This document shows, one piece after another, positions 4,004 through 60,167 of a stretch of 64,000 nt of DNA. Both the position numbers and the translations under genes were made by a program. Under the pieces are notes generated by a model. The model searched no databases. It was not told the DNA's origin and saw nothing but the letters and a program-made list of their open reading frames with translations. The stretch's first letter is position 1; each line of letters begins with the position of its first letter. Location: contig JBAZKL010000003.1 in NCBI GenBank assembly GCA_041650835.1, positions 163,682 through 227,681 of the forward strand. The letters run 5' to 3'. The DNA is from Candidatus Omnitrophota bacterium (GTDB lineage: Bacteria > Omnitrophota > Gorgyraeia > Gygaellales > Profunditerraquicolaceae).

Positions 4004-4147
4004 TTTCTTTACATAAAAATGATATAATTAAGAACAAAAGTGCGCGACCCTCACCTCCTTTCACCAAATTAGGAATAAGACCCTACATAAAAAAGTGTAG
4101 CATATACTCCTAAGAAATTCAATCCTTTTAGCCAAAGCCTCATTTGC

Positions 4148-5824: not shown

Positions 5825-5841
5825 AGTATTTTAAATAATTA

Positions 5842-9507: not shown

Positions 9508-9517
9508 AAGATAACCT

Positions 9518-10801: not shown

Positions 10802-10819
10802 TTATTCTCCTTCTGGCTA

Positions 10820-11797
10820 TTAATTGCTTGTACTACTGCTCGTGCTACTGGTTGTAGATGCGCTGGTAGTCGAGGAGCCGGTACCGCTTTCAGTGGTCAC
10901 CACACCCACCACATCCGAAGCCTTTAAATATTTCATCTTAAAGACCTTACTGGTCATACGTTGGTCTATCTGCTGAAGATATGCTTCAATACGCGCGACA
11001 TAAGGAGGATAATCGATCACGATGATCGAATTCGGCACCTGCCCCAAAAGGATCTTTCCTTTCGCGGAAATAAGGTCATAGATCGTGCTTTCTTCCTTTT
11101 TCGCCTCTTCAAGTGCAGCGTCACCGGAGCCTGCGGCGGCCGAAGGCTGCGCCACAGTCGGAGAAGCCGCCTCGGTGCCTTGTGTCGCCTTCGCAGTATC
11201 AAGCAGCTTCCTAGCTTGAATATATTTTAAAACAACCATTTTGGTGATTAAATGCGGGCTGACCTTGACGATAGAGCCTTTTTTCTCCAGCACCAGATTA
11301 CTGATCTCGGCGATCCCTTCAAGAGCTTCTTCTAAGGAAATATTCGTAAAACTGGCGGTGATCTTTCCCTGGATATCTTTATCAACTAAAATATTCAAAT
11401 TATAATCATGCGCGATAACACGGAACAAATCGGACAATTCCACATTCCGCAGCTCGATCGAATACACCGGCAATTCATTTTCCAGGCGCTTGATCTCTAA
11501 AACCGGGACAGGAGCGGTCAATTCTTTCTTTACTTCTTTTTTCTTTTCCGCCTCTTTGCCGTCTTTGCTCTCCTGGTCATCGGCTTCTTCTTTTTCATCT
11601 CCCGGCTCTTCTTCACCATCATCGACACTGGAACTTTTTTGCCCGGCGCTTGACGCCGCAGGACTCATTTGAGCCGGTTTTTCATCAGCTTCATTTTCCA
11701 CCCCTGGCTGCGGCCTGGCAAACAAAGAATTCCCGCAATTGTAAAGCATAAACAAAAAACTGATCAACCCGATGAGCCCTATTTTCTTTAGTGTCAT
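10820..11797 (-). CDS. Secretin N-domain protein, the periplasmic N0/N1-like half of a split secretin
   Basis: Signal peptide with a lipoprotein-like Cys (LYNCG). An acidic linker, then secretin_N motifs (ILLGQVPNSIIVIDYPPYVARIEAYLQQID), and a Ser/Thr-rich C-terminal tail. It ends 18 nt before the secretin gene, which has its own RBS. Confidence 0.65.
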   Translation of the reverse strand: MTLKKIGLIGLISFLFMLYNCGNSLFARPQPGVENEADEKPAQMSPAASSAGQKSSSVDDGEEEPGDEKEEADDQESKDGKEAEKKKEVKKELTAPVPVLEIKRLENELPVYSIELRNVELSDLFRVIAHDYNLNILVDKDIQGKITASFTNISLEEALEGIAEISNLVLEKKGSIVKVSPHLITKMVVLKYIQARKLLDTAKATQGTEAASPTVAQPSAAAGSGDAALEEAKKEESTIYDLISAKGKILLGQVPNSIIVIDYPPYVARIEAYLQQIDQRMTSKVFKMKYLKASDVVGVVTTESGTGSSTTSASTTSSTSSSTSN

Positions 11798-13854: not shown

Positions 13855-14310
13855 CTACGACGCTCCCGGAACAACCGTTCCGATTTTAATAATATACTCC
13901 CCTTGAGTATCTTTTAAAATAACATCTTCGGCATTAATAACCACAACCTGCTTATTATCAAGGATGTCCCCGACCTGATAGACCTGTCCGTTAATAATTG
14001 CCTTACTTTTATTATCAGCCGAATGGATGATCGCTGATACCGTTAAATATTCAAGCGGGATTTGCGCGCTTTTATTTTCGAAAGACGATTCCTCGTCTGT
14101 GGTTAAAAAAGGGTTCAGACGGGGTAACGAGTCAAAATATGAAGCCTGCGAAGCCTGCGCCTGTACAGCTTCGGTTACCGGAAGAACGGCCTGCTTTTTG
14201 AGCGGAACAATAGAGTCATCCGTAAGCTTCGTTATTTCATCTTCAGGGCTGCAACCCGCGCCCAAAAAAGCAAACAATAAAATAAGTAAAATGGCCCTTA
14301 ACTTATTCAA
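13855..14310 (-). CDS. Small lipoprotein, hypothetical
   Basis: MNKLRAILLILLFAFLGAGCSPED gives a signal peptide plus lipobox LGAGC. The start overlaps the HTH gene by 8 nt. Confidence 0.5.
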   Translation of the reverse strand: MNKLRAILLILLFAFLGAGCSPEDEITKLTDDSIVPLKKQAVLPVTEAVQAQASQASYFDSLPRLNPFLTTDEESSFENKSAQIPLEYLTVSAIIHSADNKSKAIINGQVYQVGDILDNKQVVVINAEDVILKDTQGEYIIKIGTVVPGAS

Positions 14311-14494
14311 TGCTGCCCCTTATGATTTTACTTAATTCATTAAGGTCCTGTTGGCTGTATTGCCGCCAATGATTGATCGAGTTACGCTTTGGCCTTGGGA
14401 AAATCCCCTTTTTCTCATACCGAAAAAGGGTTTGTTTAGAGATCCCTAATTTCTCGGCAGCTTCCTTAGTTGTATATATTATTTCTTGTTCCAT
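14303..14494 (-). CDS. Small AlpA/excisionase-like (HTH_17-type) DNA-binding protein, free form
   Basis: 63 aa. TTKEAAEKLGISKQTLFRYEKKGIFPRPKRNSINHWRQYSQQDL matches the AlpA/Xis/MerR N-terminal HTH pattern. It is a close paralog of the N-terminal domain of the ORF at 30025..30678, with identity through ...KKGIFP.P.RN.IN.W..YS..DL. Confidence 0.75.
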   Translation of the reverse strand: MEQEIIYTTKEAAEKLGISKQTLFRYEKKGIFPRPKRNSINHWRQYSQQDLNELSKIIRGSIE

Positions 14495-14574
14495 ATGCTG
14501 TAACTAATTGTGACACAGCCAACAACGCTTAGAAAAGCCCGGATAAATAATAAAAATTCGCGTAACCATATCTG

Positions 14575-14620
14575 ATACTATTTGACTATACTTTAAACTA
14601 TTAGATATCAATTGTCAAGA
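14575..14620 (-). promoter_or_regulatory. Putative sigma70-like promoter plus conserved operator module upstream of the free HTH gene
   Basis: The minus strand has TTGACA (14618..14613), a 17-nt spacer and TAAAGT. The conserved motif GTCAAATAGTAT (14586..14575) lies at the predicted transcription start. The same two motifs, with the same ~35-nt spacing, occur upstream of the HTH-pilin fusion at 30702-30746. Confidence 0.45.
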
Positions 14621-15516: not shown

Positions 15517-15537
15517 TGTATAATGAGGTGCCCTTGA

Positions 15538-17733: not shown

Positions 17734-18972
17734 CTAGCTCCCTTTAATGACGCGAATCATATTCCACAACGGCAGGAATATTGCCAGTGCCATCCCGATA
17801 ACCACCAACCCCAGGACCGCCGTCATCACCGGCTCGATCATCGTCGTAAGATTTTTTATGGCGTTCTTTACTTCCAAAGTAAAATACTCGCACAAGGAGT
17901 CCAGCATGAGCGGTAAAGCCCCGCTCTTCTCTCCCACGGAGATCATGTAACCGACCAGGCGCGGGAAGAATTTACTGTTCAGCACTGCCCCGGAAATACC
18001 TTTACCGTCGGCGACATCGCGCTTAATAGCTTCTATCTCTTTTGCCAGGACGACATTGCCCAGCGTCATTCCGACGATATCTATCGTATTGAGCACCGGC
18101 AAACCCGCCTGGTATAAAACACTTAACATCGAGGCGAAGCGCAGCATCGTTATTTTCGTGTATACCTTTCCGTAAATATATATCTTGAACTTTAAGCCGT
18201 CCCACAAAAATCTCCCCGAAGACGTATTGACGTACCATTTCACAAAAACGAACAAGCCGGCGAGTAACGGGAACAGGATATACCAATAATACCGCAAGGC
18301 GTCGCTGATAAAGATCATCACCTGTGTCGGCAGGGGAAGCTCAACCTTTGCCGCCTTATAGATCTGGGCGAACTGAGGGATAACAAAGACCGAGAGCACG
18401 CCGACCGCGATCACCAGCGATATCACCACCATGATCGGATAACGAAGCGCTGCCTTAATATTCGTCTGGGTCTCAAGGTCTTCTTCCAGCATATGCGCCA
18501 GGCGCAGCAATACTTTTTCCAGGACGCCGGCGGATTCCCCCGCGATCACCGTATTCACGTACAGATCGGAAAAAACACCCGGGTGCTTGGACATGGCCTG
18601 AGATAAACTGGCTCCCCCTTCCACGTCGCGCACCACCTGATGCAAAGCTTCTTTAAGGGCGGGGTCCTCGCATTGTTCCGCCAAAGCGCTTAACCCTTCC
18701 AGGATAGGGACCGCTGCTTTAATGATCGTCGCGAACTGCCGCGAAAAAATAACCAACGATTCTGTTTTTACTTTTTTTGACTGGCCGAAAAGCCCCCCCG
18801 CGGAAGCCCTCGCAGGAGAGACAAACGCCGATTTGGCTTTAACGCTGACATTAACCGGCATATACCCCATCTTCGCCAGCTTCGTCGTCAACTCAACTTC
18901 AGTGGCGGCATCCATTTCGCCGTTAACAAGCTTGCCTTCCGCATCAACCGCCCGATAAGAATACGTCGACAT
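17734..18972 (-). CDS. pilC: Type IV pilus / type II secretion inner-membrane platform protein, GspF/PilC family
   Basis: Two T2SSF-like repeats (GLSALAEQCEDPALKEAL...GGASLSQAMSKHPGVF and KSGALPLMLDSL) with three TM segments. 412 aa. Confidence 0.9.
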   Translation of the reverse strand: MSTYSYRAVDAEGKLVNGEMDAATEVELTTKLAKMGYMPVNVSVKAKSAFVSPARASAGGLFGQSKKVKTESLVIFSRQFATIIKAAVPILEGLSALAEQCEDPALKEALHQVVRDVEGGASLSQAMSKHPGVFSDLYVNTVIAGESAGVLEKVLLRLAHMLEEDLETQTNIKAALRYPIMVVISLVIAVGVLSVFVIPQFAQIYKAAKVELPLPTQVMIFISDALRYYWYILFPLLAGLFVFVKWYVNTSSGRFLWDGLKFKIYIYGKVYTKITMLRFASMLSVLYQAGLPVLNTIDIVGMTLGNVVLAKEIEAIKRDVADGKGISGAVLNSKFFPRLVGYMISVGEKSGALPLMLDSLCEYFTLEVKNAIKNLTTMIEPVMTAVLGLVVIGMALAIFLPLWNMIRVIKGS

Positions 18973-18998
18973 GTGTTTTTTATACCTCTTTAGCCTTT

Positions 18999-20666
18999 TT
19001 ACACCTGTTCGGAGGAAACCCTTGAGATCTCTTCAATAGTCGTCATCCCTGCCAGGACTTTCGTTAACCCGTCTTCGCCTAAAAGCTTCATCCCGTTTTC
19101 CTGCGCCTTTTTACGCAAGGCAAGCGCTGAGGCCTGCTGCACGATCATCTCCCTCATTTCATCGCTGATCACCATCAATTCGAAGATACCGGCCCGGCCG
19201 CGGTAACCGGTGCCTTTACAATTATCGCAACCTTTTCCGTGGTATAACGTCACGTTGGGAATTTTCGTCAAACCCCATTTTTCTAAAATAACCTGTGACG
19301 GTTGATACGGCTCTTTACAAACATCGCAGATCTTGCGGACAAGCCTCTGAGCCATAACCCCGATCAAACAAGCGGAAATTAAAAACGGCTCCACGCCCAT
19401 ATTGACCAAGCGGGTCACCGCGGAAGGGGCATCATTCGTGTGGAGCGTTGAAAACACTAAATGTCCGGTAAGGGCCGCCTGCACGGCAATGACCGCGGTT
19501 TCCAGGTCCCTGATTTCCCCCACCATGATCACATCGGGGTCCTGGCGAAGGATAGCGCGCAAACCATTGGCAAAACTGATGCCGGCTTTTACGTTAACCT
19601 GGATCTGGCGGATCAGGCCTAAACGATATTCCACCGGGTCTTCGATCGTAATAATATGCCGGTCGATCGTATTGATCGTGGTAAGCGCAGAATAGAGCGT
19701 CGTGGTCTTTCCGCTTCCCGTCGGGCCGGTTGAAAGGATGATACCGTAAGGCTTGGTGATCAGGCCACGGTAACGCTTCAAATCCGTATCCGTGGCAAAT
19801 CCTAAGCGCTCAAGGCCGATCCGGACGGAGGCGGTATCCAAAAGCCTCATGACCAGGTTCTCACCATAAATAGTCGGGATGGTCGAAACGCGGAAGTCGA
19901 TGATCTTATCGTCTACCTTGACCTGAAAATGACCGTCCTGAGGGATCCTGCTTTCAGCGATATCCATCCCCGCCAACACCTTCAGGCGGGAAAGGATCGC
20001 CGGCTCCCATTCTTTAGGAGGAGAAGGGATCTCGTGCATAATACCGTCGATACGAAAGCGTATCCGCGTGATATCCTGTTCGGGCTCAATATGGATATCG
20101 GATGCCCTGTCATGGACTGCCTGGGAAATGATCAGGTCCACTAATTTAATGATGGAGGTGCCTTCCGAACGGGAATCCTTCGTCGGCGCGGCGGGCTCCT
20201 TGGTATTTAACCCGTCCAACAGGTTTTTCGTGATCTTTCGCTCAACATATAAACGCTGCTGCGCGTCGGCGATATCGGCAAGGGCAGCATAATAGATCTC
20301 GATAGGCATCCCGGTATGCATCTGTATCTGGTCAATAGCGTATAAATCGTTCGGGTCAGCCATGGCAACGCGCAGCGTATTATTATCGATCTTTACCGGT
20401 ATTGCCTGTGCCTGGCGCGCTAACGCCTCCGGCACCATTTTAATAAGCTCCTCGTTAAACTCGACATTTTCCAGGCTCAAATACTTGAACCCGAGAGACC
20501 GGGCGATAGTTTCATGCAAAAGAGGGCGGGAGACAATATTCATATCAACCAGGACCTTTTCCAGCGGGCGCTTTAATTTCCTCATTTCCTCACCCGCCTT
20601 GTCTATATCAGCCTGGTTAACCAATCCCGAACTTAATAATAGCCCTTCCAGATCTTTATCATTCAT
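18999..20666 (-). CDS. pilB: Type IV pilus assembly ATPase, GspE/PilB family; second paralog
   Basis: T2SE_N-like N-terminus, Walker A GPTGSGKTTTLYS and C-terminal CDVC...CDNC. The start is taken at ATG 20666 (MNDKDLEGLL), immediately after the stop of the TPR gene. The longer ORF (to 20765) would overlap the upstream gene by 98 nt. Confidence 0.9.
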   Translation of the reverse strand: MNDKDLEGLLLSSGLVNQADIDKAGEEMRKLKRPLEKVLVDMNIVSRPLLHETIARSLGFKYLSLENVEFNEELIKMVPEALARQAQAIPVKIDNNTLRVAMADPNDLYAIDQIQMHTGMPIEIYYAALADIADAQQRLYVERKITKNLLDGLNTKEPAAPTKDSRSEGTSIIKLVDLIISQAVHDRASDIHIEPEQDITRIRFRIDGIMHEIPSPPKEWEPAILSRLKVLAGMDIAESRIPQDGHFQVKVDDKIIDFRVSTIPTIYGENLVMRLLDTASVRIGLERLGFATDTDLKRYRGLITKPYGIILSTGPTGSGKTTTLYSALTTINTIDRHIITIEDPVEYRLGLIRQIQVNVKAGISFANGLRAILRQDPDVIMVGEIRDLETAVIAVQAALTGHLVFSTLHTNDAPSAVTRLVNMGVEPFLISACLIGVMAQRLVRKICDVCKEPYQPSQVILEKWGLTKIPNVTLYHGKGCDNCKGTGYRGRAGIFELMVISDEMREMIVQQASALALRKKAQENGMKLLGEDGLTKVLAGMTTIEEISRVSSEQV

Positions 20667-20667
20667 A

Positions 20668-21309
20668 TTAATCCCGCATGACTTGCAGCCGCGCGACCCA
20701 CGATTGCACCTCGTTTTTATCTTGCGCTTCAGGGGCGTATTTGAGGTATTTTTGATAATACTCAATCGCTTTTTTATTATCTTTTAACTGCTCTTCATAA
20801 ATGACACCCAGATTATAACAGGCGTCGGCCTGGTTCGGATTCAAGGAGAGCGACTTCAAGAACATATTGACTGCCAGGTTGAATTGCCTGGTTTTTAAAT
20901 ATTCTATCGCCAGGTTATAATATAAATCGCTGTTGCGGGGTTCGATCTCAACCGCTCGCAGGTAGAGCACAATAGCCTCTTTTGATTGTTCTTTTTTGGA
21001 TAAAAGCCATGCCCTGCGGGCTGACGACAAAGGGGCCTCTTCAGCGGCCAAAGAAGCCGGCGCAGGTAGCGCCCTACGCGCCGGGATCCCGCCCAAAAGC
21101 TCCTGCGCTTTTTTTAATTCTTCGTCGGCAAGGATATAATCGCCTTCCTGAAGGTATTTTTCTCCCGCAAGATAATACTCCTTTGCCTTTTTGAGCTTAT
21201 CGTCGGGAGAAAAAGACACCCCGGCGCGTTCCTGTCCGAAAACAAGCCCGGGGGCCAACAAAACCCCCAGAACGATCCCCCGGAACACGCTTCTCTTTGT
21301 TTTTTTCAC
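20668..21309 (-). CDS. TPR-repeat protein with signal peptide
   Basis: Signal peptide MKKTKRSVFRGIVLGVLLAPGLVFG. TPR-like repeats (AKEYYLAGEKYLQEGDY, LYYNLAIEYLKTRQF, ACYNLGVIYEEQLKDNKKAIEYYQKYLKYAP). Confidence 0.8.
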   Translation of the reverse strand: MKKTKRSVFRGIVLGVLLAPGLVFGQERAGVSFSPDDKLKKAKEYYLAGEKYLQEGDYILADEELKKAQELLGGIPARRALPAPASLAAEEAPLSSARRAWLLSKKEQSKEAIVLYLRAVEIEPRNSDLYYNLAIEYLKTRQFNLAVNMFLKSLSLNPNQADACYNLGVIYEEQLKDNKKAIEYYQKYLKYAPEAQDKNEVQSWVARLQVMRD

Positions 21310-21312
21310 CCG

Positions 21313-22653
21313 CTATTCTCCGTTATTTTGAGGCATCAGTTCAACTCCGACCTTCTTCCCGGCAGCCCCCGGCGTATCAACAGTATCATACGTCCGCTCC
21401 GGCTCAGCGAGTTTGAACATATTGCTGACCTGCTGGAACTTGTTCTGCAATTCATTTAATTTCGCCTTGGTCTGGTTCAGGTCATTGACCATGGTTTCCC
21501 GTTCTAATTGCACCGAAACATTCTGCTCCCGCAGCAACGCGGATTCTTTTTTCATCTCTTTATATTTTGAATAGACCTCAAATGTCTTGGCGTCCGCTTC
21601 CTCCAGCCGCTGCTTTATAAAAGCCACTTCTTCTTTTCGGCGGGACAACTCGGCCTCACCCTGCTTCATCGCTAACTGGGAGGTAGCGTGCTTATCGCCT
21701 AAATCGGAATAATCCTTATTCAATTTCGCAAGCTGCGACTTAAACAAATTGACCTCTTTTGCCAGCTCTTGGTTCTTCTTGCTCAAAAGAACCATGTTCA
21801 TCTTTTGCTTCTCGGTGCGTTGGGTATAATCCTGTTTTTCCTCTATAAGCCTTGCCTCCCTCGATTGAGCGTCCTTTAATTCCCTGTCCAGCTTTTCCAG
21901 AACCGGCTTCAGGTCAGGGCCGCCGAGGGAAAGCTCATTCAATGTTTTTTCCAGGTCAAGGGCCTTCTGCGCCAACAACGCTTTTTCATTCACTACTACC
22001 TGCAGCTGCCCGGAGACAGAAGACAAGGTATTCTGTAACGCTTCTTTCTGGGACTGCGCTTCCGCGAATTGCTTCTTAAGCGCCTGTAACTCTTCTTCCT
22101 TGCGCGCCAGGCTTTCACGGAACCGTTCCGTTTGCTCTTTATACGCCGCTATCTCGCTCAATAACGCCGGGACCTGAGCATTAACCACATCCAGGTCTTT
22201 GCCTAAGTTCTCTAATTGAGCGATAAACTCCGCCCCCTTATCCGGCTGGAGCTTAAGCTCCGTCAAAACGCGCTCGAGCTGACGGATCTTTTCTTTAACC
22301 GGCAGGGATATATCGGCATCGCCTTTAAGCCCGGCCAATTCTTTTTCCAGTTCATCTTTTTGCTTCATGGCGTCTTTCAACTGCCCCTGAAGATCAATGA
22401 TCTTTGCTCTCACATCGAGGGCCTTGGCTTTTTCCTCGTTGAACGCCTGATGCAGGGTAAGATTAAATTTACCGAAGCCATTGACTACGTCGCGCAACTG
22501 CTGCACCTCGGATTCCAGCACTGAAACGGCCATCCCGTTCTTATCCGCGAGAGTCACCTGGCGGGTTTTCTTAGAAAGCTTGACCGCCTGGAAGAGCACA
22601 AAAGAAAGCAGCATGACCACGACAAAAAGGATCAACAATTTTCTATCCGTCAT
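21313..22653 (-). CDS. Membrane-anchored coiled-coil protein in the pilus operon
   Basis: N-terminal TM segment (LLILFVVVMLLSFVLF) followed by ~400 aa of heptad-rich K/E/L/Q sequence. It sits between pilQ and pilB, the position occupied by the giant coiled-coil protein in locus B. Confidence 0.65.
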   Translation of the reverse strand: MTDRKLLILFVVVMLLSFVLFQAVKLSKKTRQVTLADKNGMAVSVLESEVQQLRDVVNGFGKFNLTLHQAFNEEKAKALDVRAKIIDLQGQLKDAMKQKDELEKELAGLKGDADISLPVKEKIRQLERVLTELKLQPDKGAEFIAQLENLGKDLDVVNAQVPALLSEIAAYKEQTERFRESLARKEEELQALKKQFAEAQSQKEALQNTLSSVSGQLQVVVNEKALLAQKALDLEKTLNELSLGGPDLKPVLEKLDRELKDAQSREARLIEEKQDYTQRTEKQKMNMVLLSKKNQELAKEVNLFKSQLAKLNKDYSDLGDKHATSQLAMKQGEAELSRRKEEVAFIKQRLEEADAKTFEVYSKYKEMKKESALLREQNVSVQLERETMVNDLNQTKAKLNELQNKFQQVSNMFKLAEPERTYDTVDTPGAAGKKVGVELMPQNNGE

Positions 22654-24065
22654 TTGATCTCTCTCATTTCAAGCTTCGCCGGACGAGGCAGCGCGGTAAC
22701 CATATTGCTCTCGCTGGCGATGAGCGGTAAATCATCGTCTTTAATAATATGGGCGGTAACGAATATCAACAAATCGGTCTTTTCAGTCGGGTTTTCAGTC
22801 GAACCGACTTCCTTGCGCCTAAAGAGCGCCCCCAGAAAGGGGATGTCCCCCAACAGGGGGATCTTTTTCTCTGTCGTCGCCGTTTCATCCTTTACCATTC
22901 CGCCGATGACAACCGTTTGGCCGTCCTTGATCTGGACTTCCGTCTGCGCGGAACGCGAAGACGTGATCGGTCCTTCTTTTACCCCGTCGCGTTCAGAGGC
23001 GTATCCGACAAGGCTGCTGACTTCAGGCTTAAGCTTTAATTTAATATGCCCGTCGGGGCTGACCTGCGGGGTCACGTCAAGCTTAACCCCGACATTATAA
23101 TTGGTCCAGCCGGTGATCTCCAGGTTCCCGGTAGTCTCGTTACGCTCATACGTCGGCAACGACAAAACCTTCCCGACATTGATCACGGCATTCTGGTTAT
23201 TGATGGTGACAATACGGGGATTCGCGACGAGTTTAGTTTTATTGCGTGATTTCAAGAAATCAAGAATGGTCTGGAAAGAAGAAAAATCAAGGGTTCCGAA
23301 GGTAAAATCCCCCAAGACGGTATAGGGAAAACCCGTAGGATTAGCCGCGTTAAAATCAGCGTCGGTAGAAGAAGCTTGCGGCAGAAAATTCTGCGCGAAC
23401 TCATTGCCGCCCTTCGGGCTGAAAGGGAACGTTATCGCCCGTTTCGCGCCGGTAGCCTTTATGGTCGTCGTCCAGTCGATCCCTAATTTATCGTTGACCG
23501 TAAGAGACGTCTCGATCATCTTGGCTTCGATCAAAACCTGGGAAGTCAATTCATCGAGAGAAGGGACCATCGCTTCGATCTTATTGATCACGGAGCTGGA
23601 ATCAGTGACGATGATCGAATTGGAACGGCTGTCTGATTCTATCGATCCGTCGGATGAGAGGACTTTGGCGAGCGTGACCTTGAGGGTGGCGGCGTCGGCA
23701 TTATTCAGTTTAAAAAGCTTTGTCTGATTGCCCTGTTTGACGACCTCATCCTGCGTCGTTACTTTATAAACATTATCTTTTTTGGAATAAGCAAACCCGT
23801 TGACCGTGATGATCGAATCCAGCGCCTGCTCAATGCTGACATTGTTCAACTGGACGGTGACCAGCCCCTTGACCGTTTCCGAAAAAATGATATTCAGGTT
23901 ATATTGTTTAGCGAGCTGGCGTAAAACATCCTTAATGTCAACCTCGCGGAATTCCAGCGATTCGATCATCTGCTGCTCTTGGGCAATAAGGAGGCCCGCC
24001 CAGGACAAAAAGAACCCTAACAAGATAACAACACATAATTTTAGCCTGACCCGCTTTTCAATCAT
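22650..24065 (-). CDS. pilQ: Type IV pilus secretin PilQ
   Basis: Signal peptide. STN/secretin N-domain (IKDVLRQLAKQYNLNIIFSETVKG). Secretin core motifs VLIEAKMIE and VVIGGMVKD...KIPLLGDIPFLGALFRRK...LLIFVTAHII. Confidence 0.85.
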   Translation of the reverse strand: MIEKRVRLKLCVVILLGFFLSWAGLLIAQEQQMIESLEFREVDIKDVLRQLAKQYNLNIIFSETVKGLVTVQLNNVSIEQALDSIITVNGFAYSKKDNVYKVTTQDEVVKQGNQTKLFKLNNADAATLKVTLAKVLSSDGSIESDSRSNSIIVTDSSSVINKIEAMVPSLDELTSQVLIEAKMIETSLTVNDKLGIDWTTTIKATGAKRAITFPFSPKGGNEFAQNFLPQASSTDADFNAANPTGFPYTVLGDFTFGTLDFSSFQTILDFLKSRNKTKLVANPRIVTINNQNAVINVGKVLSLPTYERNETTGNLEITGWTNYNVGVKLDVTPQVSPDGHIKLKLKPEVSSLVGYASERDGVKEGPITSSRSAQTEVQIKDGQTVVIGGMVKDETATTEKKIPLLGDIPFLGALFRRKEVGSTENPTEKTDLLIFVTAHIIKDDDLPLIASESNMVTALPRPAKLEMREIK

Positions 24066-24159
24066 GATGCATGCCTCTTGGATAATACCCGAATGTTTCC
24101 TGATAGAAAATTATACCACACTCCAACAAATAGTTTGACTATTTTTATACCCCCGGCCT

Positions 24160-24630
24160 TCATTGGTTTAATTCACCGGGAAACGTCAAATAAAAGCTCT
24201 GGCTTTCTTTTTTAAGCAGCACTTTTGCTTTCTCAACTTCAACGACCTCATAGCCGCCGACCGCATCTCCTTGTTTCACGATCTCATTATTAATAAAAGC
24301 GTACCCGGCCCTGTTTTTTCCGAAAGATATACCCTGCAGCTTTAATTCATCCATTTTAAACTCTTTATCAAACAGGCCGATAAAAGGGTCCCGCCCCCAG
24401 TTGAGCTTGCCGCGCTCCAACTGCTGGGCGCGCATCGTATCGCTCGTCGCCGCGGGTGAGGCCGGCGCAGCGGAAGAGGATATTGCCACCGGAGGAGCCA
24501 GCGCCACGGTTGACTGCGTCTGGGGCACCGGCGCGCGGGATGGCTTCTTCTTAATATTCCCCAGGGTAACCAGGGCCAAAACAACGATCAAACAGCCGGT
24601 GAGAATGAGTTGCTTTATCTGTTTAGACAT
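24160..24630 (-). CDS. PilP-like pilus assembly lipoprotein; assigned by position and topology
   Basis: 156 aa with an N-terminal signal/lipobox-like LTGC. A Pro/Ala-rich linker precedes a small C-terminal beta-rich domain. It lies between the PilO-like gene and pilQ. Confidence 0.4.
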   Translation of the reverse strand: MSKQIKQLILTGCLIVVLALVTLGNIKKKPSRAPVPQTQSTVALAPPVAISSSAAPASPAATSDTMRAQQLERGKLNWGRDPFIGLFDKEFKMDELKLQGISFGKNRAGYAFINNEIVKQGDAVGGYEVVEVEKAKVLLKKESQSFYLTFPGELNQ

Positions 24631-24640
24631 GCGTATCCTG

Positions 24641-25258
24641 TTATATTTCCAGGACCATATACGTGCTTAAAAGAAGCGTTGCCACAAGGTCGCGCGGCTT
24701 CGCCTGGTCCTTATCTTTGAGCTTATCCTGCACCACGACAGCAATATCCTTGCCCGCCTTCTTATCGATGGCTATCGATTCTACGATAAAAGCTACCTGC
24801 AATTTTCCCAGGTTAGCCAAGTATTCCCCTAACTCCTGATAAGAACAATTGAGCACCACCTCGATATACACCTTATTGACTCCCGGAGGAAGGTTTTCAC
24901 TTGACGCTCTTATATCATCGCGCGGGCGTATCGAAGCTACCGACATATTATACTGGCTTATCGAAGCACCCAGCAGGGTAACCAGCCGCGGGACCTGCTT
25001 TTTATTGATCTCCGCGTCTTTAAATTCCTCCGCCTTCTTAGCAATATCCTCCATGGCCTTTTTAGGGTCCGGCAGGGCGCGGATAAGCGCCTCTGATTCC
25101 TGGAGCTTAACTTGTTCGTCGCTGAATTCAACTTTAAGCTTATTCGCCGCTTTCGTCAAAGCCCCTCCTAAGAATACCTGGATAAGCGCCAAAACAACGG
25201 CAGACACCACAAAGATGACCGCGATCTCTTTTAACGTATTGCCGTTTTTTCTCGCCAT
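24641..25258 (-). CDS. PilO-like bitopic protein; assigned by position and topology
   Basis: 205 aa with a single N-terminal TM segment, then a coiled coil and a periplasmic domain. It lies immediately downstream of the PilM-N fusion. Confidence 0.45.
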   Translation of the reverse strand: MARKNGNTLKEIAVIFVVSAVVLALIQVFLGGALTKAANKLKVEFSDEQVKLQESEALIRALPDPKKAMEDIAKKAEEFKDAEINKKQVPRLVTLLGASISQYNMSVASIRPRDDIRASSENLPPGVNKVYIEVVLNCSYQELGEYLANLGKLQVAFIVESIAIDKKAGKDIAVVVQDKLKDKDQAKPRDLVATLLLSTYMVLEI

Positions 25259-25270
25259 GGCGCTTTTTTG

Positions 25271-27067
25271 CTAATACTCCAATTTACAGGTTATTTCAAA
25301 TGTCGCCGCCGGCAGCGGAGAATATTTATCCGGCTCGCTTGAAACCAGAATAACATCCTTGAAAAAAGGCGATTCTTCCAGCACCATCTGGTACTGAGAC
25401 AAAGCCAGGTCCACGATCGTATATTGGGAAACGATCCTGCCGAACAAATGTATTTCTTTGGTTTCTTTAGCCGGATCCGTATTGACCCTCGTTAACACGA
25501 CATTCTTCGGCGTAATATTACTAAGCTCTTTAAAGATCCCCCACCACAAAGGCTGCTTTCCTATCGCTTTTTCCAAAAGGTCTTTGCGCTGGTCTAAGCG
25601 CGTCTTCATGTCCAAATACCCTTTAACCTGGGTAACCGTCGGTTCAAGTCGCAGGATCTCCTCCTGCGTCGCCTGGATAAGGTTTTTATACCTGACATTG
25701 TTAAGATAGCTGAACCCGTGCATCACCAGGAACAAAAGCAGGGTTACCGGGAAGAACAGCTTGAGCAATAAACGCAAAAAGAGCGTTTTCTGCTCTAACT
25801 TTTCAGTGCTCGGCAGCAGGTTTATCTTCCCCCCGCCCCCGAGGCAAAGGCCAAAGGCTACCGCCAAATGAGGAGCAGCCTGCTCCATCACAAAATCCTG
25901 TTTTAAAACACCTTTTTCCGTCCATCCCTTGATCGCCTTAAGGACATTGAGCCGTTCAACCTTCTTTAAACGCTCAAGATTATACAAAAAGAACTTGTCC
26001 AGGTTCTTCAAACGGGAGCTGCCGCCGGTAATATATAATTCCTCGATATTTTCGGATTTAAACGTTTTAGCGTAATAACTGAGCGTACGGGTGATCTCCA
26101 TGATCAAACGTTCCAGGGTCGGACGGAACATGGTCGATATCTGCTCCCCCAGCAAGGCGCCGTAATCCGTCAAGAACTCGGTCCGGGACTCATCTTCCAA
26201 AGGGATCCCGCAGTTACGCTTTATCTTTTCCGCGTCATCAAAGCTCAGTTCAATGGTTTGAGCCCCCGAAGCTACCGGCTTTGCCATCGCCCGGGTCAAG
26301 TGGTCGCCGCCGACAGGGATATCACGCATAAATACCAGATCCCTGCCTTTATAAAAATTAAGCGTTGTATTATTAGCGCCCACATCAAGGAGCATTACGG
26401 TCTTGCCGACGGGAGCCTCGACACAAAAAGGCAAAAGGTTGCCAAGGGCATCCGGCACAATATTGATCGCCAGCGGGCGTATAGAGATATCTTTCAAGAA
26501 TTGCACCTGCTCATCAAGCACGGAGCGGTCAACCGCGATACAGGTTACCTGCAAATTAGGCCCCTTATCATCCTGAGCGCGGCCGGTAATAAAATAATCG
26601 AACGAAACGTGATTGATATCGACCTGGAAGGGCATGCGCTTCTTCAACTCTAAGCCGATCAACCCCCGCAGGTCTTTTTTATTGATCACCGGGACGCTCA
26701 AGGAAAAAACAAAGATGCCTTTACCTGAGACAGCCATGCGGGCAAAGCGTGTTTTAATCGGGCTATCGGCAATGAATTTTCTAATGATATCCTGAAACAT
26801 TTTTTTCTTCGCGGAAGCATCTTCCCGGATTTCCAGAGGGATACTGCGGATAACGCAATCGGTTATCAGGTATCCCTTGCTTATTTTCTGCAGCTGCAGC
26901 ACCTTGATATGGCTTGAGCCCAGGTCGATGCCGACAACATGCTGGCCGGAGGCGACAAAATTCCGGAAAGCCGCGGAAAACAAAAACAGGAAATCACGCA
27001 ACGAGAATGATGATTTCGGTTTTGGCGCTTTCACGGCAAACTGATTTTCCTGCTTCCGGTTATTCAT
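25271..27067 (-). CDS. pilM: PilM-PilN fusion: actin-like ATPase-fold domain plus bitopic PilN-like domain
   Basis: HVVGIDLGSSHIKVLQL matches the PilM/FtsA-like phosphate-1 motif. After ~420 aa comes a TM segment (LFFPVTLLLFLVMHGF), then a coiled coil and a periplasmic domain as in PilN. Confidence 0.7.
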   Translation of the reverse strand: MNNRKQENQFAVKAPKPKSSFSLRDFLFLFSAAFRNFVASGQHVVGIDLGSSHIKVLQLQKISKGYLITDCVIRSIPLEIREDASAKKKMFQDIIRKFIADSPIKTRFARMAVSGKGIFVFSLSVPVINKKDLRGLIGLELKKRMPFQVDINHVSFDYFITGRAQDDKGPNLQVTCIAVDRSVLDEQVQFLKDISIRPLAINIVPDALGNLLPFCVEAPVGKTVMLLDVGANNTTLNFYKGRDLVFMRDIPVGGDHLTRAMAKPVASGAQTIELSFDDAEKIKRNCGIPLEDESRTEFLTDYGALLGEQISTMFRPTLERLIMEITRTLSYYAKTFKSENIEELYITGGSSRLKNLDKFFLYNLERLKKVERLNVLKAIKGWTEKGVLKQDFVMEQAAPHLAVAFGLCLGGGGKINLLPSTEKLEQKTLFLRLLLKLFFPVTLLLFLVMHGFSYLNNVRYKNLIQATQEEILRLEPTVTQVKGYLDMKTRLDQRKDLLEKAIGKQPLWWGIFKELSNITPKNVVLTRVNTDPAKETKEIHLFGRIVSQYTIVDLALSQYQMVLEESPFFKDVILVSSEPDKYSPLPAATFEITCKLEY

Positions 27068-27133
27068 CTTATAATTTGCAACCGGCCCAACGGGCCGTTT
27101 CTTGTTTTAAGGAGCCCCGTCCTGCGGATACGG

Positions 27134-27397
27134 CTATCTTCTCGTAGCCCTCACCTTGACGATCTCCAGCTCTTTAAGTATCTTTTCCTGATTACTGATC
27201 ACCACCGCCAATTGAGCGAGGACCAGCTTATCCGTTTCATTCGTATGCGCCGCCAACTGATCGAATTTATCGACCAGGCGGGCGAACTCATCGACTGGGC
27301 CTGCCGGCTCAGCCGTTCGCTGGGCGCGCAGGGACGCAACCATACCCAAACAAACCACTACGGTCACTCCTATACCAACGGCTATTTTCTTTCCCAT
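27134..27397 (-). CDS. Small secreted coiled-coil protein, hypothetical
   Basis: 87 aa with a signal peptide (IAVGIGVTVVVCLGMVASLRA) and a helical remainder. Confidence 0.35.
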   Translation of the reverse strand: MGKKIAVGIGVTVVVCLGMVASLRAQRTAEPAGPVDEFARLVDKFDQLAAHTNETDKLVLAQLAVVISNQEKILKELEIVKVRATRR

Positions 27398-27406
27398 ATC
27401 CCCCCC

Positions 27407-28933
27407 TTACTGTTCCTGCCAGGAAATAGAATCAAACGCCCCGATAAAACCGTTATCTTTAACGAACCGTGTTGAATAGCGTATCCTCACCCGCCCGTCT
27501 AAATAAACATCACTGCCCATGACGGACCTTCCGTCAAGGTAGTTAAGATATACCGCGCCGTTCTGCGTATAAATAAGCCCGTCGAAATTCCGGGCGTCCC
27601 TCCTTTGCGTCTCATTATGGCCTGAGGGCGTCTCATAAGAAAGGATATTGCCGTATTGCGTTGCCAGGTTCGGATAGGTCAGGCGGATAACCCTGCGGGA
27701 ACGCCTCCCGCGGGGGATCCTTTGGCGCGAAGCGACCATGATGATCGGATCTTCGCCTTTAATAACGATATCTCTTTCCCCGACGAGGCTGGTACCGTTA
27801 AAGGTCAGATCATGACTTCTTACATCAAGAAGCAGATCTCCGGCGACATACCAGATGTTTTCATTATCATAATCATGATTGGGATTACTATGGCTTGAAT
27901 CATAGTAAAACCGCCTGACTAAAGCCACCTCTTCATTGACAAGCCAGCGGTCCGCAGGACGGGAATTAAAGTTAATGCTCCCGTCAAATTCCAGGGTGAC
28001 CGTATTATTGTTTATCCGGTTCACGATCACTCCCCAGTTCCTGTATCCCCATTTATCGTTAAGGACGGGGTCCTCCCGCTTATTCCGCAGCACAACCTCC
28101 TGGGTCCACGATGAACCCGACGGCCCGGGAGGGGGAGAGGTAAAAACATCGCTCTTTAAGCGCACCTGTAACTGCCGGGCGGAAACCACGCTCACATTAT
28201 CAATGACCGCGTCTAACTGTAAAGCTGAAGGGGCCCAGACGCGGCTGCCCGCCTCGTCGCGGAAATACTGCATATCGATCCCCTGATAACCGGTATCCAC
28301 CGGTACCCGGTCCCGTACACCGCTGGAGGTATCCGGAACATTCAGATCAGCGGCTTCATTATGGGTCGAATTATTATTTCCTTCATAGCCGTCGGTTGAA
28401 TCCCCCGGGCGGTCAACGACGACAATATCCCCGTCTATTAAAGAACCGCTATGCCACGCTGACCAGTCAAAAAGATGCTTGATCATACTGGCTTCATTGA
28501 TCGTTCCAGGCGTAACGCTCAATTTTAACTGGCGCATTGCCAGGTATGAATTCTCCGACGGGACATAGCCCCTTACCTCAATAACCGCATCGCCTGCTTC
28601 ACCTGCGAGCGCGTTGCGGCAGCAAACGGTATACTCGCCCGGGCTCAAAGCATATTTCGGCCGCTCAAGCGCGTCGTTACAATCACGGTCGTTATTAAGG
28701 TCCGTGCGCCAGGTTTCATCGTTCATATAGCGCACGAGCGCCCATTGGCCGCCGGCCTCTGCCAGATTCAACGCGCGTTCAGATTCCAATAAACGGGATG
28801 AAGCGTCAAAATCAGTCGAGATCATTGATGACAGAGTCCACCCCAGGAGCGCGAAAATAAGCATCGCGAAGATCACTATAACCAGGCTCATCCCTTTTTT
28901 ATTCGCCACGGGCGCTTCCTTTCTGCGCGACAA
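27407..28933 (-). CDS. PilX-like large minor-pilin / tip-associated protein
   Basis: The N-terminus KKGMSLVIVIFAMLIFALLGWTLSSM resembles the PilX_N class of pseudopilin-like helices, which lack Glu+5. The ~470-aa C-terminal domain has no catalytic motifs. Confidence 0.55.
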   Translation of the reverse strand: MSRRKEAPVANKKGMSLVIVIFAMLIFALLGWTLSSMISTDFDASSRLLESERALNLAEAGGQWALVRYMNDETWRTDLNNDRDCNDALERPKYALSPGEYTVCCRNALAGEAGDAVIEVRGYVPSENSYLAMRQLKLSVTPGTINEASMIKHLFDWSAWHSGSLIDGDIVVVDRPGDSTDGYEGNNNSTHNEAADLNVPDTSSGVRDRVPVDTGYQGIDMQYFRDEAGSRVWAPSALQLDAVIDNVSVVSARQLQVRLKSDVFTSPPPGPSGSSWTQEVVLRNKREDPVLNDKWGYRNWGVIVNRINNNTVTLEFDGSINFNSRPADRWLVNEEVALVRRFYYDSSHSNPNHDYDNENIWYVAGDLLLDVRSHDLTFNGTSLVGERDIVIKGEDPIIMVASRQRIPRGRRSRRVIRLTYPNLATQYGNILSYETPSGHNETQRRDARNFDGLIYTQNGAVYLNYLDGRSVMGSDVYLDGRVRIRYSTRFVKDNGFIGAFDSISWQEQ

Positions 28934-28946
28934 GATATTGCCTGCC

Positions 28947-29486
28947 TTAAAGATTCCTGAAAAACACCTGCGCGGTCACCGTCTTATCCAAGGTCCTGTC
29001 GGGGCCGCTGGAAACAAAAACCAGGGCGACCTCGACACGATAGATATCAGACTCTTGCGGATTGACCAGGGGGGATGCGATCAGCTGATTATCCGCGTTA
29101 TAATAAGTAAACGCCACCTCACTCAAGCCGCTTACCAGGACATTCTCAACAGCATTACTTCCCCGGATCAGGGCATTGCCTGAAAACCGGTAGCGGATCA
29201 TCGTATCGCTGACATCCAGGAATCGGAATTCCGAAGCGCCCGCCGTATAAACCGACAAAGCGTTTTTTATCTGCCGCATCTCCCGGGACATGCGCATCAA
29301 TGCCATGCGCCCCTGGCTGACCGACTCGCTGCGAAATGATATAAAGCGCCATAAATCGATCACTCCTTTGACATAAAACGATGAACCCGCGGCCAACACC
29401 CCCACGATCACCATGACCGTTACCAGCTCTATCAAGGTGACCGCTTTTTTCCGGCGCAAAGGCCAAGACACACCTTTAAAACCCAT
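28947..29486 (-). CDS. Minor pilin (prepilin-type N-terminal domain)
   Basis: RRKKAVTLIELVTVMVIVGVLA shows a basic leader, TLIEL with Glu+5 and a hydrophobic helix. 179 aa. Confidence 0.7.
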   Translation of the reverse strand: MGFKGVSWPLRRKKAVTLIELVTVMVIVGVLAAGSSFYVKGVIDLWRFISFRSESVSQGRMALMRMSREMRQIKNALSVYTAGASEFRFLDVSDTMIRYRFSGNALIRGSNAVENVLVSGLSEVAFTYYNADNQLIASPLVNPQESDIYRVEVALVFVSSGPDRTLDKTVTAQVFFRNL

Positions 29487-29500
29487 TGCTCATTATCCCC

Positions 29501-30043
29501 CTAATAAGCGCCGACGATAGTTGTCAAACTCACATCGCTGGCTAAATTATTGCTGCGGGAAACGCTTACCTGGACACGCTTAAAGCAGCATTCGGAACAA
29601 CTGCTGCAATCCGTCGGTTCCACGCAGGCGGATACCTCACCGCAGCCCTGCCAGGTATTGCCGCTCAAACGCATATAATCAACCGTTACCGCGCGCGTGT
29701 ATCCTATAACAGGCGTAGTAACTGAAATATCCGCGCATCCGACGTAATCATCCACGTCGTTAAAAGTCCTTTTATCATTACTATTTTCCCCGCTCTCAGC
29801 TCCGAAGGAAGTGCTCGCGGTCCAGGGAGCGGCATCGCCGTGGTCAAAACTTTTTGATTTTATCTCTTCCATTAATTGCTGCGCGAAAAAAGCCGCGTCC
29901 GCTAAAGATTCCGAACGGACCGACCTCCAGGAAACATCCGACCACATGGTCATCAATACCGGCACGCTGAAACCCAGGACCACGATCACGACGATCAGCT
30001 CAATTAACGACATACCCTTATTACTCATTGTACCCTCACCCAT
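29501..30043 (-). CDS. Minor pilin with Cys-rich C-terminal domain
   Basis: MSNKG|[20 protein letters not shown] is a prepilin motif. The C-terminus contains CGEVSACVEPTDCSSCSECC. Confidence 0.75.
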   Translation of the reverse strand: MGEGTMSNKGMSLIELIVVIVVLGFSVPVLMTMWSDVSWRSVRSESLADAAFFAQQLMEEIKSKSFDHGDAAPWTASTSFGAESGENSNDKRTFNDVDDYVGCADISVTTPVIGYTRAVTVDYMRLSGNTWQGCGEVSACVEPTDCSSCSECCFKRVQVSVSRSNNLASDVSLTTIVGAY

Positions 30044-30678
30044 CCTGTATTCGGCGAAACATAAACGCTTAAATCCTCGTTTCGGCAGCTAAACCTTACT
30101 TGCCCGTCGGCAACTAACGGGTTCCCCGCGGCATCCTGGGGAGCGCCCTGCCAATCAAAACGCAGGACATTCGAACTCCCGAAACTCACCGCGGCGATCC
30201 TGATCCCTTTATACTGCGGGTCATTGATAAAATCCACCCTGAAATTATTGCGGCCAAAAGGAGACAGCGCGAAGCTGTTATCCAGCTTCTGGACATCATA
30301 CCGATTTACGGGATTATTATAAAATGTTATCTTATACGACTCGTGGCGGGAAACAGCCAGCTGCTGGACATAGCGGATGTCCGATACAGTTTTTTGCACC
30401 GCGCCTGCCAGCTTCATGGAATAAAAGCTGTCGATGCGGGGAATTGCCAGGCCGACCATGATCCCGATAATAGCCATTACCATGATCAGTTCAACCAGGC
30501 TCATGCCCCGGCCCAAGATCTGCTCCATTTTTCGCAGGTCATCTTCGGAATATTCCCGCCATTGATTAATACGGTTCCTGCGCGGTTTAGGAAAAATTCC
30601 TTTTTTTTCATAGCGAACCAGAGTTTGCCGGGATAGCCTCAATTTTTCCGCAATCTCTGAAGCGCGAAAAATACGCAT
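30025..30678 (-). CDS. AlpA/excisionase-like HTH domain fused in frame to a minor pilin
   Basis: Residues 1-~50 (EIAEKLRLSRQTLVRYEKKGIFPKPRRNRINQWREYSEDDL) are paralogous to the 63-aa protein at 14303..14494. They are followed by ...MEQILGRG|MSLVELIMVMAIIGIMVGLAIP, which has G-1, Glu+5 and a hydrophobic helix. A strong Shine-Dalgarno (CAGGAG) precedes the first ATG, whereas the internal Met codons lack good ribosome-binding sites. Confidence 0.7.
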   Translation of the reverse strand: MRIFRASEIAEKLRLSRQTLVRYEKKGIFPKPRRNRINQWREYSEDDLRKMEQILGRGMSLVELIMVMAIIGIMVGLAIPRIDSFYSMKLAGAVQKTVSDIRYVQQLAVSRHESYKITFYNNPVNRYDVQKLDNSFALSPFGRNNFRVDFINDPQYKGIRIAAVSFGSSNVLRFDWQGAPQDAAGNPLVADGQVRFSCRNEDLSVYVSPNTGWVRVQ

Positions 30679-30701
30679 TTAGAATCTCCTGATATGGTTT
30701 A

Positions 30702-30746
30702 ATACTATTTGTCATAATTTTATTATATTATAGGAAATTGTCAAGA
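30702..30746 (-). promoter_or_regulatory. Sigma70-like promoter plus conserved operator module for the minor-pilin operon
   Basis: The minus strand has TTGACA (30744..30739), a 16-nt spacer and TAAAAT (30722..30717). The conserved GACAAATAGTAT (30713..30702) lies at the predicted transcription start. The same motif pair occurs at 14575-14620. Confidence 0.5.
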
Positions 30747-59966: not shown

Positions 59967-60167
59967 ATCCCGGATAAAAACTACGCAGCATTCCCTTATA
60001 TTTACCTCACCTATTGCGCCAAACCACCCTGTCTCATCAAAAGCCGCTCACGTTACAATTGCATAATAAAGGTTTTTAGAAAGGTTGTCAAATAGTATAC
60101 GGGCATCAGGAATACCTATATTGCCCGTTCGGAAACAATCAATCACTCCCCTGCGGATATAAAATTC

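Follow-up and report, generated by a model that had tools for sequence, protein, structure and literature searches.

We analysed a 64,000-nucleotide (nt) stretch of a Candidatus Omnitrophota genome (contig JBAZKL010000003.1, positions 163,682 to 227,681 of the forward strand; hereafter the window) and found that the first gene of a type IV pilus operon for minor pilins, PilMNO, a secretin, PilB and PilC (operon A) encodes a minor pilin whose predicted leader peptide is a complete DNA-binding domain. The gene, an open reading frame (ORF) at 30025..30678 on the minus strand, specifies a product of 217 amino acids (aa) in which a truncated MerR-type winged helix-turn-helix (HTH) and a FimU/GspH-type pilin are joined in a single frame (hereafter the fusion). 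That this architecture is real and selected we regard as almost certain. For the complete chain of events that we propose for it, in which a prepilin peptidase would release a repressor acting on its own promoter, the sequence leaves the balance even.

The fusion gene and its predicted product

30686..30690, minus strand: Shine-Dalgarno AGGAG, 7 nt 5' of the ATG; CAGGAG is kept in nearly all fusion loci
30505..30678, minus strand: codons 1-58, leader winged HTH, truncated MerR-type (BldC-like), 7.2 kDa, isoelectric point 10.9
30502..30507, minus strand: predicted prepilin-peptidase cleavage junction G58/M59 (GGC/ATG), in LGRG/MSLVELIM
30025..30504, minus strand: codons 59-217 plus stop, mature FimU/GspH-type minor pilin, 17.8 kDa

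Residues 5-61 of the product matched the Pfam families MerR_1 (E 5.7e-9) and MerR (E 9.6e-7), whereas the scores for HTH_17 (19.4 bits, E 1.3e-3) and Phage_AlpA (16.3 bits, E 9e-3) were under the respective cut-offs of 27 and 21. A preliminary description of this DNA had correctly reported a strong ribosome-binding site and a complete small HTH followed by a canonical prepilin site; the AlpA/excisionase (Xis) label that it gave to the HTH was dropped for MerR/BldC-like on the basis of these Pfam scores and of the Foldseek matches given below. Judged by its sequence, the leader domain is of MerR type and belongs to the same superfamily as AlpA/Xis, but it is not AlpA proper. The prepilin N-methylation motif TIGR02532 was found at residues 57-79 (22.6 bits; cut-off 16.3), and the junction reads ...KMEQILGRG/MSLVELIMVMAIIGIMVGLAIP (slash, predicted cleavage), with G58 at position -1 and E63 at position +5. 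The remaining pilin part of the window protein gave only sub-threshold matches to GspH, ComGD and XpsH; its homolog P0024 scored above the cut-off for Pfam GspH PF12019 (33 bits).

An AlphaFold2 (AF2) model of the fusion was computed from an alignment of 19 homologs (mean predicted local distance difference test score 84, ~90 in the pilin domain). In the model, the leader consists of a strand (residues 3-5), two helices (6-12 and 17-25), a wing (33-44) and a further helix (45-56), and is followed by a four-residue linker, a 50-residue alpha1 helix (61-110) and then a beta-sheet. Helix alpha4 of the HTH runs into LGRG and the pilin transmembrane helix, with neither a dimerisation helix nor an effector domain. 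In Foldseek matches against PDB, the C-terminal part returned FimU 4ipu as the best hit (E 5e-5, TM-target 0.67) and then EpsH/GspH 2qv8, and the N-terminal part returned MerR-family regulators (HiNmlR 5d90), BldC 6ama and RacA. On BldC 6ama, the modelled leader was aligned with a root-mean-square deviation of 1.9 A over 51 residues (TM-target 0.70, 24% identity). When the fusion was assessed as a class III signal, the terminal Gly, the stretch of ~21 hydrophobic residues and the Glu at +5 were all present and the alpha1-helix-on-beta-sheet arrangement of pilins was seen in the AF2 model; its leader, at 58 aa and with a predicted winged-HTH fold, lies outside the 6-26 aa of short leaders.

Translation from an internal start at Met51 (MEQILGRG/MS...) would instead give a prepilin with a short leader, and the full-length protein would be a minor by-product or the upstream codons a regulator gene that lacks its stop. 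The resulting 8-aa leader would be similar to those of the pilin-only orthologs described below, and most family members have a Met at this position, but Leu or Phe takes its place in L003, L012, L019, P0008 and P0011 with no other Met nearby, and the position is a buried hydrophobic site of MerR helix 4. Met51 is also without a Shine-Dalgarno sequence, whereas the first ATG has the conserved AGGAG, and because no stop codon intervenes, ribosomes starting at codon 1 would still make the fusion. We consider an internal start very unlikely.

Conservation and selection of the fusion

Homologs were collected from a search space of 5.8 billion proteins, which yielded 18 full-length homologs with 48-98% identity and 99-100% coverage (96% for P0018, which is N-terminally truncated) and also four pilin-only relatives. 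A scan of one genome per species identified the complete fusion in 11 genomes, 8 of them labelled Candidatus Omnitrophota and the remaining 3 carrying other bin labels, including Planctomycetales and Deltaproteobacteria, and a metagenome scan contributed 28 further fusion loci. The total of 58 full-length fusions corresponds to 46 distinct sequences at 99% identity, 40 clusters at 90% and 19 clusters at 70%.

The reading frame is open through the HTH-pilin junction in all 58 sequences. Twenty-eight fusions were inspected closely: leaders are 58-61 aa long, Glu occupies +5 in every one, and Gly occupies -1 in 27. When 19 fusions were aligned, the HTH half contained 18 of the 39 invariant residues, and mean pairwise identity was 66% in the HTH vs 46% in the globular pilin domain. 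The ratio of nonsynonymous to synonymous substitution (dN/dS) in the HTH was 0.027, 0.000 and 0.095 against three relatives, and 0.05-0.22 in the pilin part. Across a clade of Omnitrophota, this architecture, the G-1/E+5 signature for cleavage and assembly, and the promoter with the 10-bp direct repeats described below are conserved and maintained by purifying selection.

Assembly error and decaying read-through are excluded by the in-frame junction found everywhere, the conserved HTH and the low dN/dS. The chance that an assembly or sequencing artefact, or a recent read-through of two genes, explains the ORF is negligible, since the same in-frame junction occurs in independent JGI, ENA, Logan and NCBI metagenome-assembled-genome assemblies at 41-98% identity and dN/dS is low on both sides of it. 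The preliminary description had proposed to examine the junction in relatives and would have been refuted by segments that are always separate genes there. This check and two of its refuting conditions turned out favourably: the segments are in frame throughout these independent assemblies and the 19 clusters at 70% identity, and at the junction position neither a stop codon nor a separate HTH gene was seen in any of the relatives examined.

A query of residues 1-85, run in search of the HTH on other pilin types, gave a single match of 60 aa. Long N-terminal extensions in P0037, P0041, P0044, P0074, P0078, P0141 and P0163 were considered and set aside: they are without a Pfam domain and look like over-extended start calls.

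A free-standing paralog of the leader domain

14303..14494, minus strand: free 63-aa HTH paralog, first gene of operon B (a second secretin operon), with an 8-nt overlap with the next gene

The same domain occurs in the window as a stand-alone gene, as the preliminary description had stated, although its product does not end exactly in ...IIRG; the C-terminus is ...KIIRGSIE, and the protein stops after alpha4. The gene is translationally coupled to the next one. The paralog matched MerR_1 with E 2.7e-12 (47 bits), barely passed HTH_17 (29.6 bits) and is 58% identical to the fusion leader over 53 aa (E 9e-25). Its closest solved relatives are the N-terminal domains of NmlR, MerR and CueR, with a phmmer match to the PDB sequence of HI_0186/NmlR at E 3e-6.

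The species-representative scan located the free HTH in 24 more loci, and 23 loci (L020-L043 minus L036) encode a complete free protein of ~60-66 aa; where the downstream sequence was read, a protein with an NPFL motif follows most of the free genes. The pairing seen in the window recurs in three other genomes, in each of which a single contig carries the fusion and, 13-15 kb away, a free paralog (L012/L022, L011/L028 and L015/L039). Fused and free forms show almost no variation in the region that contacts DNA, ISKQTLxRYEKKGIFP...RNxINxWR. Several free paralogs end in ...ILGRG (L020, L029), ...ILGRI or ...ILGRR, and these ends fall no more than one residue from the cleavage site of the fusion. 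By its length and sequence layout, the predicted released fragment would be a natural stand-alone protein in all but name.

Loci L020, L021, L026 and L033 were candidates for an HTH and an adjacent pilin as separate genes and were rejected as such: each has tandem duplicates of the free HTH, the two copies being ~60% identical, ahead of the NPFL-motif gene, which resembles PilP and the C component of type II secretion systems (T2SS-C). L089 has a free HTH at ~400 nt from a pilin gene, but this pilin is a different one, of the major type.

Promoters and 10-bp repeat arrays

30736..30746, minus strand: fusion -35 region TCTTGACAATT, with TTGACA at 30739-30744; CTTGACA or CTTGCT is kept in 40 homologous loci
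30717..30722, minus strand: fusion -10 TAAAAT, 16 nt after the -35, 11/12 consensus positions; TAAAAT, TAGAAT or TAATAT in homologs
30688..30717, minus strand: fusion candidate operator, three 10-bp direct-repeat units TTATGACAAA, TAGTATTAAA and CCATATCAGG, at ~+1 to +25
14561..14620, minus strand: free-paralog promoter and candidate operator, with -35 TTGACA at 14613-14618 and -10 TAAAGT at 14590-14595
14561-14590, minus strand: free-paralog units TATAGTCAAA, TAGTATCAGA and TATGGTTACG, in the same register as in the fusion promoter

The module that the preliminary description had noticed upstream of both HTH genes was recovered in full: TTGACA, a spacer of 16 nt (fusion) or 17 nt (free paralog), a -10 hexamer, five bases and then CAAATAGTAT. 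The free-paralog promoter, with TAAAGT as its -10, agrees with the consensus at 10/12 positions. Within the 64 kb, the 11-mer TCTTGACAATT has exact copies at these two promoters only, and the 10-mer CAAATAGTAT has three, at the two promoters and at 60089.

Upstream regions of 14 fusion genes and 23 free genes were compared. The comparison shows that CAAATAGTAT straddles two successive 10-bp units of a tandem array with the consensus nWRTATYARR. The operator of the preliminary description is upheld as an operator-like element that is conserved and tied to the HTH genes, but the motif itself is the junction of two repeat units, and the second proposed motif, TTGACAATT, is merely the -35. Arrays of 2-4 units begin directly after the -10 (1-4 copies across all sites) and were found in ~40 fusion promoters and most of the 23 free-paralog upstream regions; the last unit of the fusion array in the window overlaps the Shine-Dalgarno sequence.

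Across 35 non-redundant regions, the core TA[TC][CT]A[AG] recurred with a spacing of exactly 10 bp in 29 cases, 20 bp in 12 and 30 bp in 5, with 0-2 occurrences for each other spacing up to 45 bp; the 46 phased spacings compare with a mean of 0.5 and a maximum of 4 in shuffles. The observed counts are inflated by the shared ancestry of the regions; the free-gene regions, however, are highly divergent and differ in their unit numbers (e.g. TATCAAATAGTATCAAATAGTAT in L027). Among fusion genes, 40 loci have a near-invariant layout, namely -35, a non-conserved spacer of 16-17 nt, -10, AYRMCAAATAKTATTAAGRTATATCAGGAG, 5-7 nt and the ATG, although the proteins of loci sharing it are only 41-63% identical; the 30-nt element was recognised in 34 of these loci by a strict pattern and in the others with one mismatch. 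No array precedes the pilin-only orthologs in L004/L005 and L111, and the third of the three contexts is ambiguous.

BldC of Streptomyces is a monomeric MerR-like winged HTH that binds variable numbers of direct repeats head-to-tail (PMC5859096), and the arrays found here fit this precedent of a winged HTH without a dimerisation helix on head-to-tail repeats. The HTH family probably reads these repeats. It is improbable, in our estimate, that the leader HTH is something other than a transcriptional autoregulator, with the repeats read by the free paralog or another factor and the leader serving to tether the locus to the membrane, to dock on the platform or the ATPase, or to bind other DNA. 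Fusion-bearing genomes do contain a free paralog, which could alone account for the operator; the near-invariant DNA-contacting region nevertheless predicts the same specificity for fused and free forms, and the array co-occurs with the fused HTH and is missing before pilin-only orthologs.

Two other accounts of the conserved upstream element were discarded. Folding z-scores of +0.58 and -0.13 relative to shuffles gave no indication of an RNA structure, and a classical MerR operator within the promoter spacer does not agree with a spacer that is 16-17 nt long and not conserved, the array lying after the -10.

With a strict two-unit score, the fusion site was the sole match in the window and 20 shuffles gave none; matches to a relaxed matrix were at chance level, the position weight matrix being biased by the unit-picking pattern and missing the degenerate free-paralog site. 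Three phased operator-like units at 17119-17148, within a kinase gene, are also at about chance level. One further site was recorded:

60086..60098, plus strand: possible third operator copy GTCAAATAGTAT, intergenic, upstream of a tetratricopeptide-repeat (TPR) gene at 58953..59966 (minus strand) and in the opposite orientation

This 12-mer is identical to the operator junction of the free paralog and is followed by the roughly phased TATACGG and CATCAGG; by our own estimate, ~0.01 such 12-mers are expected by chance in 128 kb of two-strand sequence. The copy may be another target of the HTH family.

In one subclade (L001, L007 and L052-L054), the array and the ATG are set apart by an insertion of 150-200 nt with abundant CCCGC...GCGGG inverted repeats, and this insertion (150-230 nt upstream of the ATG) gives a long 5' untranslated region.

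Proposed mechanism

Prepilins insert with the leader in the cytoplasm and the Gly at -1 is critical; in the assembled filament the alpha1 helix of the mature pilin lies within the core, and known leaders are unstructured and 6-26 aa long (PMC4471445). In the mechanism that we propose, the fusion would likewise insert with its N terminus in the cytoplasm, leaving the HTH cytoplasmic and tethered by the alpha1 transmembrane helix. The host prepilin peptidase would cut after G58 and give two products, an ordinary mature minor pilin that would join the pilus-priming complex and, one-for-one with each processed pilin, a free, basic HTH of 7.2 kDa. The freed HTH would bind two or three phased TATYARR units at ~+1 to +25 of its own promoter and thereby repress operon A. 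The 63-aa paralog probably binds the repeats likewise, and binding is probably head-to-tail and cooperative, as in BldC. Cross-regulation of the paralog-led secretin operon B by the freed HTH would be expected because the DNA-contacting residues of both paralogs are near-identical. The net effect would be negative autoregulation of the pilus-machine genes, which would not become effective before insertion and processing of the minor pilin.

A retained pilin role follows from the conserved G-1 and E+5, the FimU/EpsH fold, the position of the gene as first in an H-I-J-K-like series and the pilin-only orthologs that occupy the same slot. Cleavage and release of the leader HTH seem to us somewhat favoured on the present evidence. 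Several observations weigh against the proposal. The cleavage site adjoins a folded domain of 58 aa, where known leaders are unstructured stretches of 6-26 aa (PMC4471445), and one fusion (L012/L048) has Ala at -1. No prepilin peptidase (Peptidase_A24) gene was found within the 64-kb window. The first and third units of the free-paralog array in the window are degenerate; its close relative L034 has better ones (TATCATCAAA TAGTATCAAA). Repression is suggested by a single feature, the position of the array just downstream of the -10.

The folded domain beside the cleavage site, which might hinder the peptidase, and the family member with Ala at -1 would also suit a one-component regulator of the ToxR, CadC or TcpP type that stays uncleaved and tethered to the membrane, from where its HTH would bind the operator while the pilin fold in the periplasm would report the state of the minor-pilin complex or of the machine. 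The AF2 model, with a cytoplasmic N-terminal DNA-binding domain, one transmembrane helix and a periplasmic domain, has indeed a ToxR-like topology. However, G-1 and E+5, which matter for cleavage and assembly, are as conserved in the fusions as in ordinary pilins, and the nested pilin-only orthologs indicate that the pilin role was retained. The fusion is moreover the sole FimU/GspH-type pilin of operon A, and an unprocessed alpha1 would be unable to pack in the filament core (PMC4471445). Cooperative binding at 2-3 adjacent units would presumably also be harder for a tethered protein. We therefore regard a permanently tethered regulator as unlikely and retain proteolytic release of the HTH as the preferred reading.

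Origin and variants of the fusion

In a neighbour-joining tree, the fused HTHs form one clade among the free HTHs. In the tree of mature pilins, the fusions fall in one broad clade with pilin-only members interspersed (P0019-22, P0025, P0026, P0032 and P0034-36). These topologies tentatively indicate a single fusion event followed by repeated loss of the HTH, a reading that is weakened by the nature of the trees, which are neighbour-joining trees of short sequences without support values.

The pilin-only orthologs have leaders of 3-9 aa (MKRG, MRNKG or MRNSFGKPG up to the cleavage site) and sit in the same genomic slot as the fusions. A hidden HTH gene upstream of them was considered and rejected, because only 82-150 nt separate them from a divergent ComFB-CheR gene. 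Loss of the HTH is real for P0019 and P0022. Among the variants, P0029 has kept a decayed HTH remnant, L073 has a leader of 74 aa with a 16-aa duplication at the junction, and L064 has a stop codon near the C terminus.

The pilin-only gene in L006 (5985-6030) begins with TAAAATTATGAGAAATAGT, an 18/19 match to the fusion promoter and first operator unit. The 18/19 match, to TAAAATTATGACAAATAGT, is suggestive of an origin by deletion of the HTH, with the first operator unit becoming the start codon; the nearest fused relative, L003, has no ATG there, which weighs against such an origin.

In P0051/L045 (513-1157), an unrelated, excisionase-type HTH_17 domain (E 5.6e-17) lies in frame with a pilin of the same family. 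The leader is 53 aa long and ends ...RRDKG/LTLIE, and the gene is flanked by a PilX-like gene and a second minor pilin. Its pilin domain lies outside the clade of the MerR fusions, and the gene is known from a singleton contig of 1255 bp. P0051 may be an independent fusion, which hints that the HTH-leader solution arose more than once.

Gene neighbourhood in the window

29501..30028, minus strand: second minor pilin, PilV/GspI-like; its ATG overlaps the TGA of the fusion (ATGA), and its leader is MSNKG/MSLIE
27407..29486, minus strand: third and fourth minor pilins, of 179 aa (PilW/GspJ position) and 508 aa (PilX/GspK position); the order is kept in homologous loci
17734..27397, minus strand: rest of operon A, comprising a conserved 87-aa protein, a PilM-PilN fusion, PilO, a 156-aa protein, a secretin, a coiled-coil protein, a TPR protein, a PilB-type ATPase and PilC
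3437..14310, minus strand: operon B, comprising a T2SS-C/PilP-like protein of 151 aa, a DUF6782 metallopeptidase-like protein, a secretin in two ORFs, a 1221-aa protein, a T2SS-E ATPase and a GspG-type pseudopilin

The sibling pilins of operon A carry KG/MSLIELIV at their processing sites. PilM and PilN are joined in a single 598-aa protein (25271-27067, minus strand), a fusion that is kept in homologous loci. The synteny of operon A led by the HTH-pilin fusion is conserved in L001, L007 and the P0015 contig. In most relatives (L004, L005, L006, L001 and L007), a ComFB-CheR methyltransferase gene lies upstream of the operon in divergent orientation; the window has folC and purH as the upstream neighbours instead.

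The secretin of operon B (9518-11797, minus strand) is divided between an ORF with STN and Secretin_N domains (325 aa) and one with the Secretin domain (427 aa), and represents either a genuine split or a frameshift. Between the two operons (14683-17633, minus strand) lie genes for an MshEN-PilZ protein, a receiver-only response regulator, a PilZ protein and a histidine kinase, which suggest cyclic-di-GMP and phosphorelay input to both pilus systems. Elsewhere in the window, a 967-aa ORF (44640-47543, minus strand) carries both a Peptidase_M1 aminopeptidase domain and an Omp85-type outer-membrane barrel, an unusual pairing.

Implications

Prepilin leaders are generally viewed as short and functionless once removed, and prepilin peptidases as pure maturation enzymes. 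That the peptidase would act here as a signalling protease, with pilin maturation freeing a transcription factor one-for-one, is to us a serious though slightly doubtful proposition. Both views would change if it were true, since a leader peptide would for the first time have its own function and a prepilin peptidase would for the first time release a regulator, a bacterial counterpart of transcription-factor release by GxGD proteases. Transcription would be compactly coupled to the membrane insertion and processing of a structural subunit, and both the expression of the pilus machine and its cross-talk with the second secretin system would be hard-wired to pilin processing. A full-text literature search covering part of the journals returned no report of a DNA-binding, HTH or MerR domain as a prepilin leader, nor of a prepilin peptidase releasing a regulator or transcription factor.

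The system would also open a first way into gene regulation in Omnitrophota; this phylum is uncultivated, and its pili are believed to be important for host attachment. A small orthogonal repressor or a protease-released reporter could be built from the 58-aa module and its 10-bp repeat operator.

Comparison with known systems

BldC resembles the leader in being a winged HTH of ~60-70 aa with no coiled-coil or effector domain, and in having operators that, like the candidate ones here, are tandem direct repeats of variable number rather than a dimer palindrome. It differs in that no phmmer match was obtained between the BldC chains among PDB sequences and this HTH at E<=1, in that the repeat period is 9 bp with AATT(N4)C compared with 10 bp and the core TATYARR here, and in that one copy of the domain is here the leader of a membrane protein. 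Classical MerR regulators (MerR, CueR, NmlR and HspR) share a sequence match through alpha1-alpha4 and the wing. Both the leader and the free paralog, however, lack the alpha5 dimerisation helix and an effector site, and in the fusion the alpha1 transmembrane helix of the pilin sits where alpha5 would follow alpha4; the promoter spacers here are 16-17 nt, compared with 19-20 nt for the classical regulators, and contain no palindrome, the direct repeats being placed after the -10.

As a pilin, the product is like FimU/GspH (EpsH, XcpU) in its fold, in G-1 and E+5, and in being encoded by the first gene of an H-I-J-K-like set ahead of the assembly genes; it differs by a folded leader of 58-61 aa in place of 6-26 hydrophilic residues (PMC4471445). 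Modular type IV pilins such as PilB of Streptococcus sanguinis also combine a pilin module and an extra domain in one polypeptide. In the described cases, as far as is known, the extra module is C-terminal and displayed on the filament, whereas the extra domain found here is N-terminal, would face the cytoplasm and would be cut off ahead of assembly.

Feedback of pilins on transcription has precedents. PilS-PilR exerts feedback control of PilA by sensing the pilin pool in the membrane. The minor pilins of P. aeruginosa repress their own operon through FimS-AlgR (PMC5979040). The proposed circuit is similar in that a product represses its own transcription, but these systems depend on two-component sensing, while the regulator here would be part of the pilin precursor itself.

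Prepilin peptidases are GxGD-type membrane aspartyl proteases, like presenilin (PMC2947513, PMC4985597). Pro-sigmaK/SpoIVFB, RseA/sigmaE, Notch/presenilin and the ToxR-type regulators share with the fusion a factor held at the membrane by a transmembrane segment; cleavage here would differ in being constitutive maturation and not triggered by a signal. The preliminary description had drawn an analogy with FlgM export, and as in FlgM/sigma28 the assembly or processing of a surface organelle would be coupled to transcription of its genes. This analogy proved loose, for FlgM is an inhibitor that is exported, whereas here a DNA-binding domain would be freed inside the cell without anti-sigma logic, and such cytoplasmic release is nearer to the regulated proteolysis of a membrane-tethered factor. 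The finding would combine known kinds, namely a minor pilin, a BldC-like regulator and a tethered factor released by a protease.

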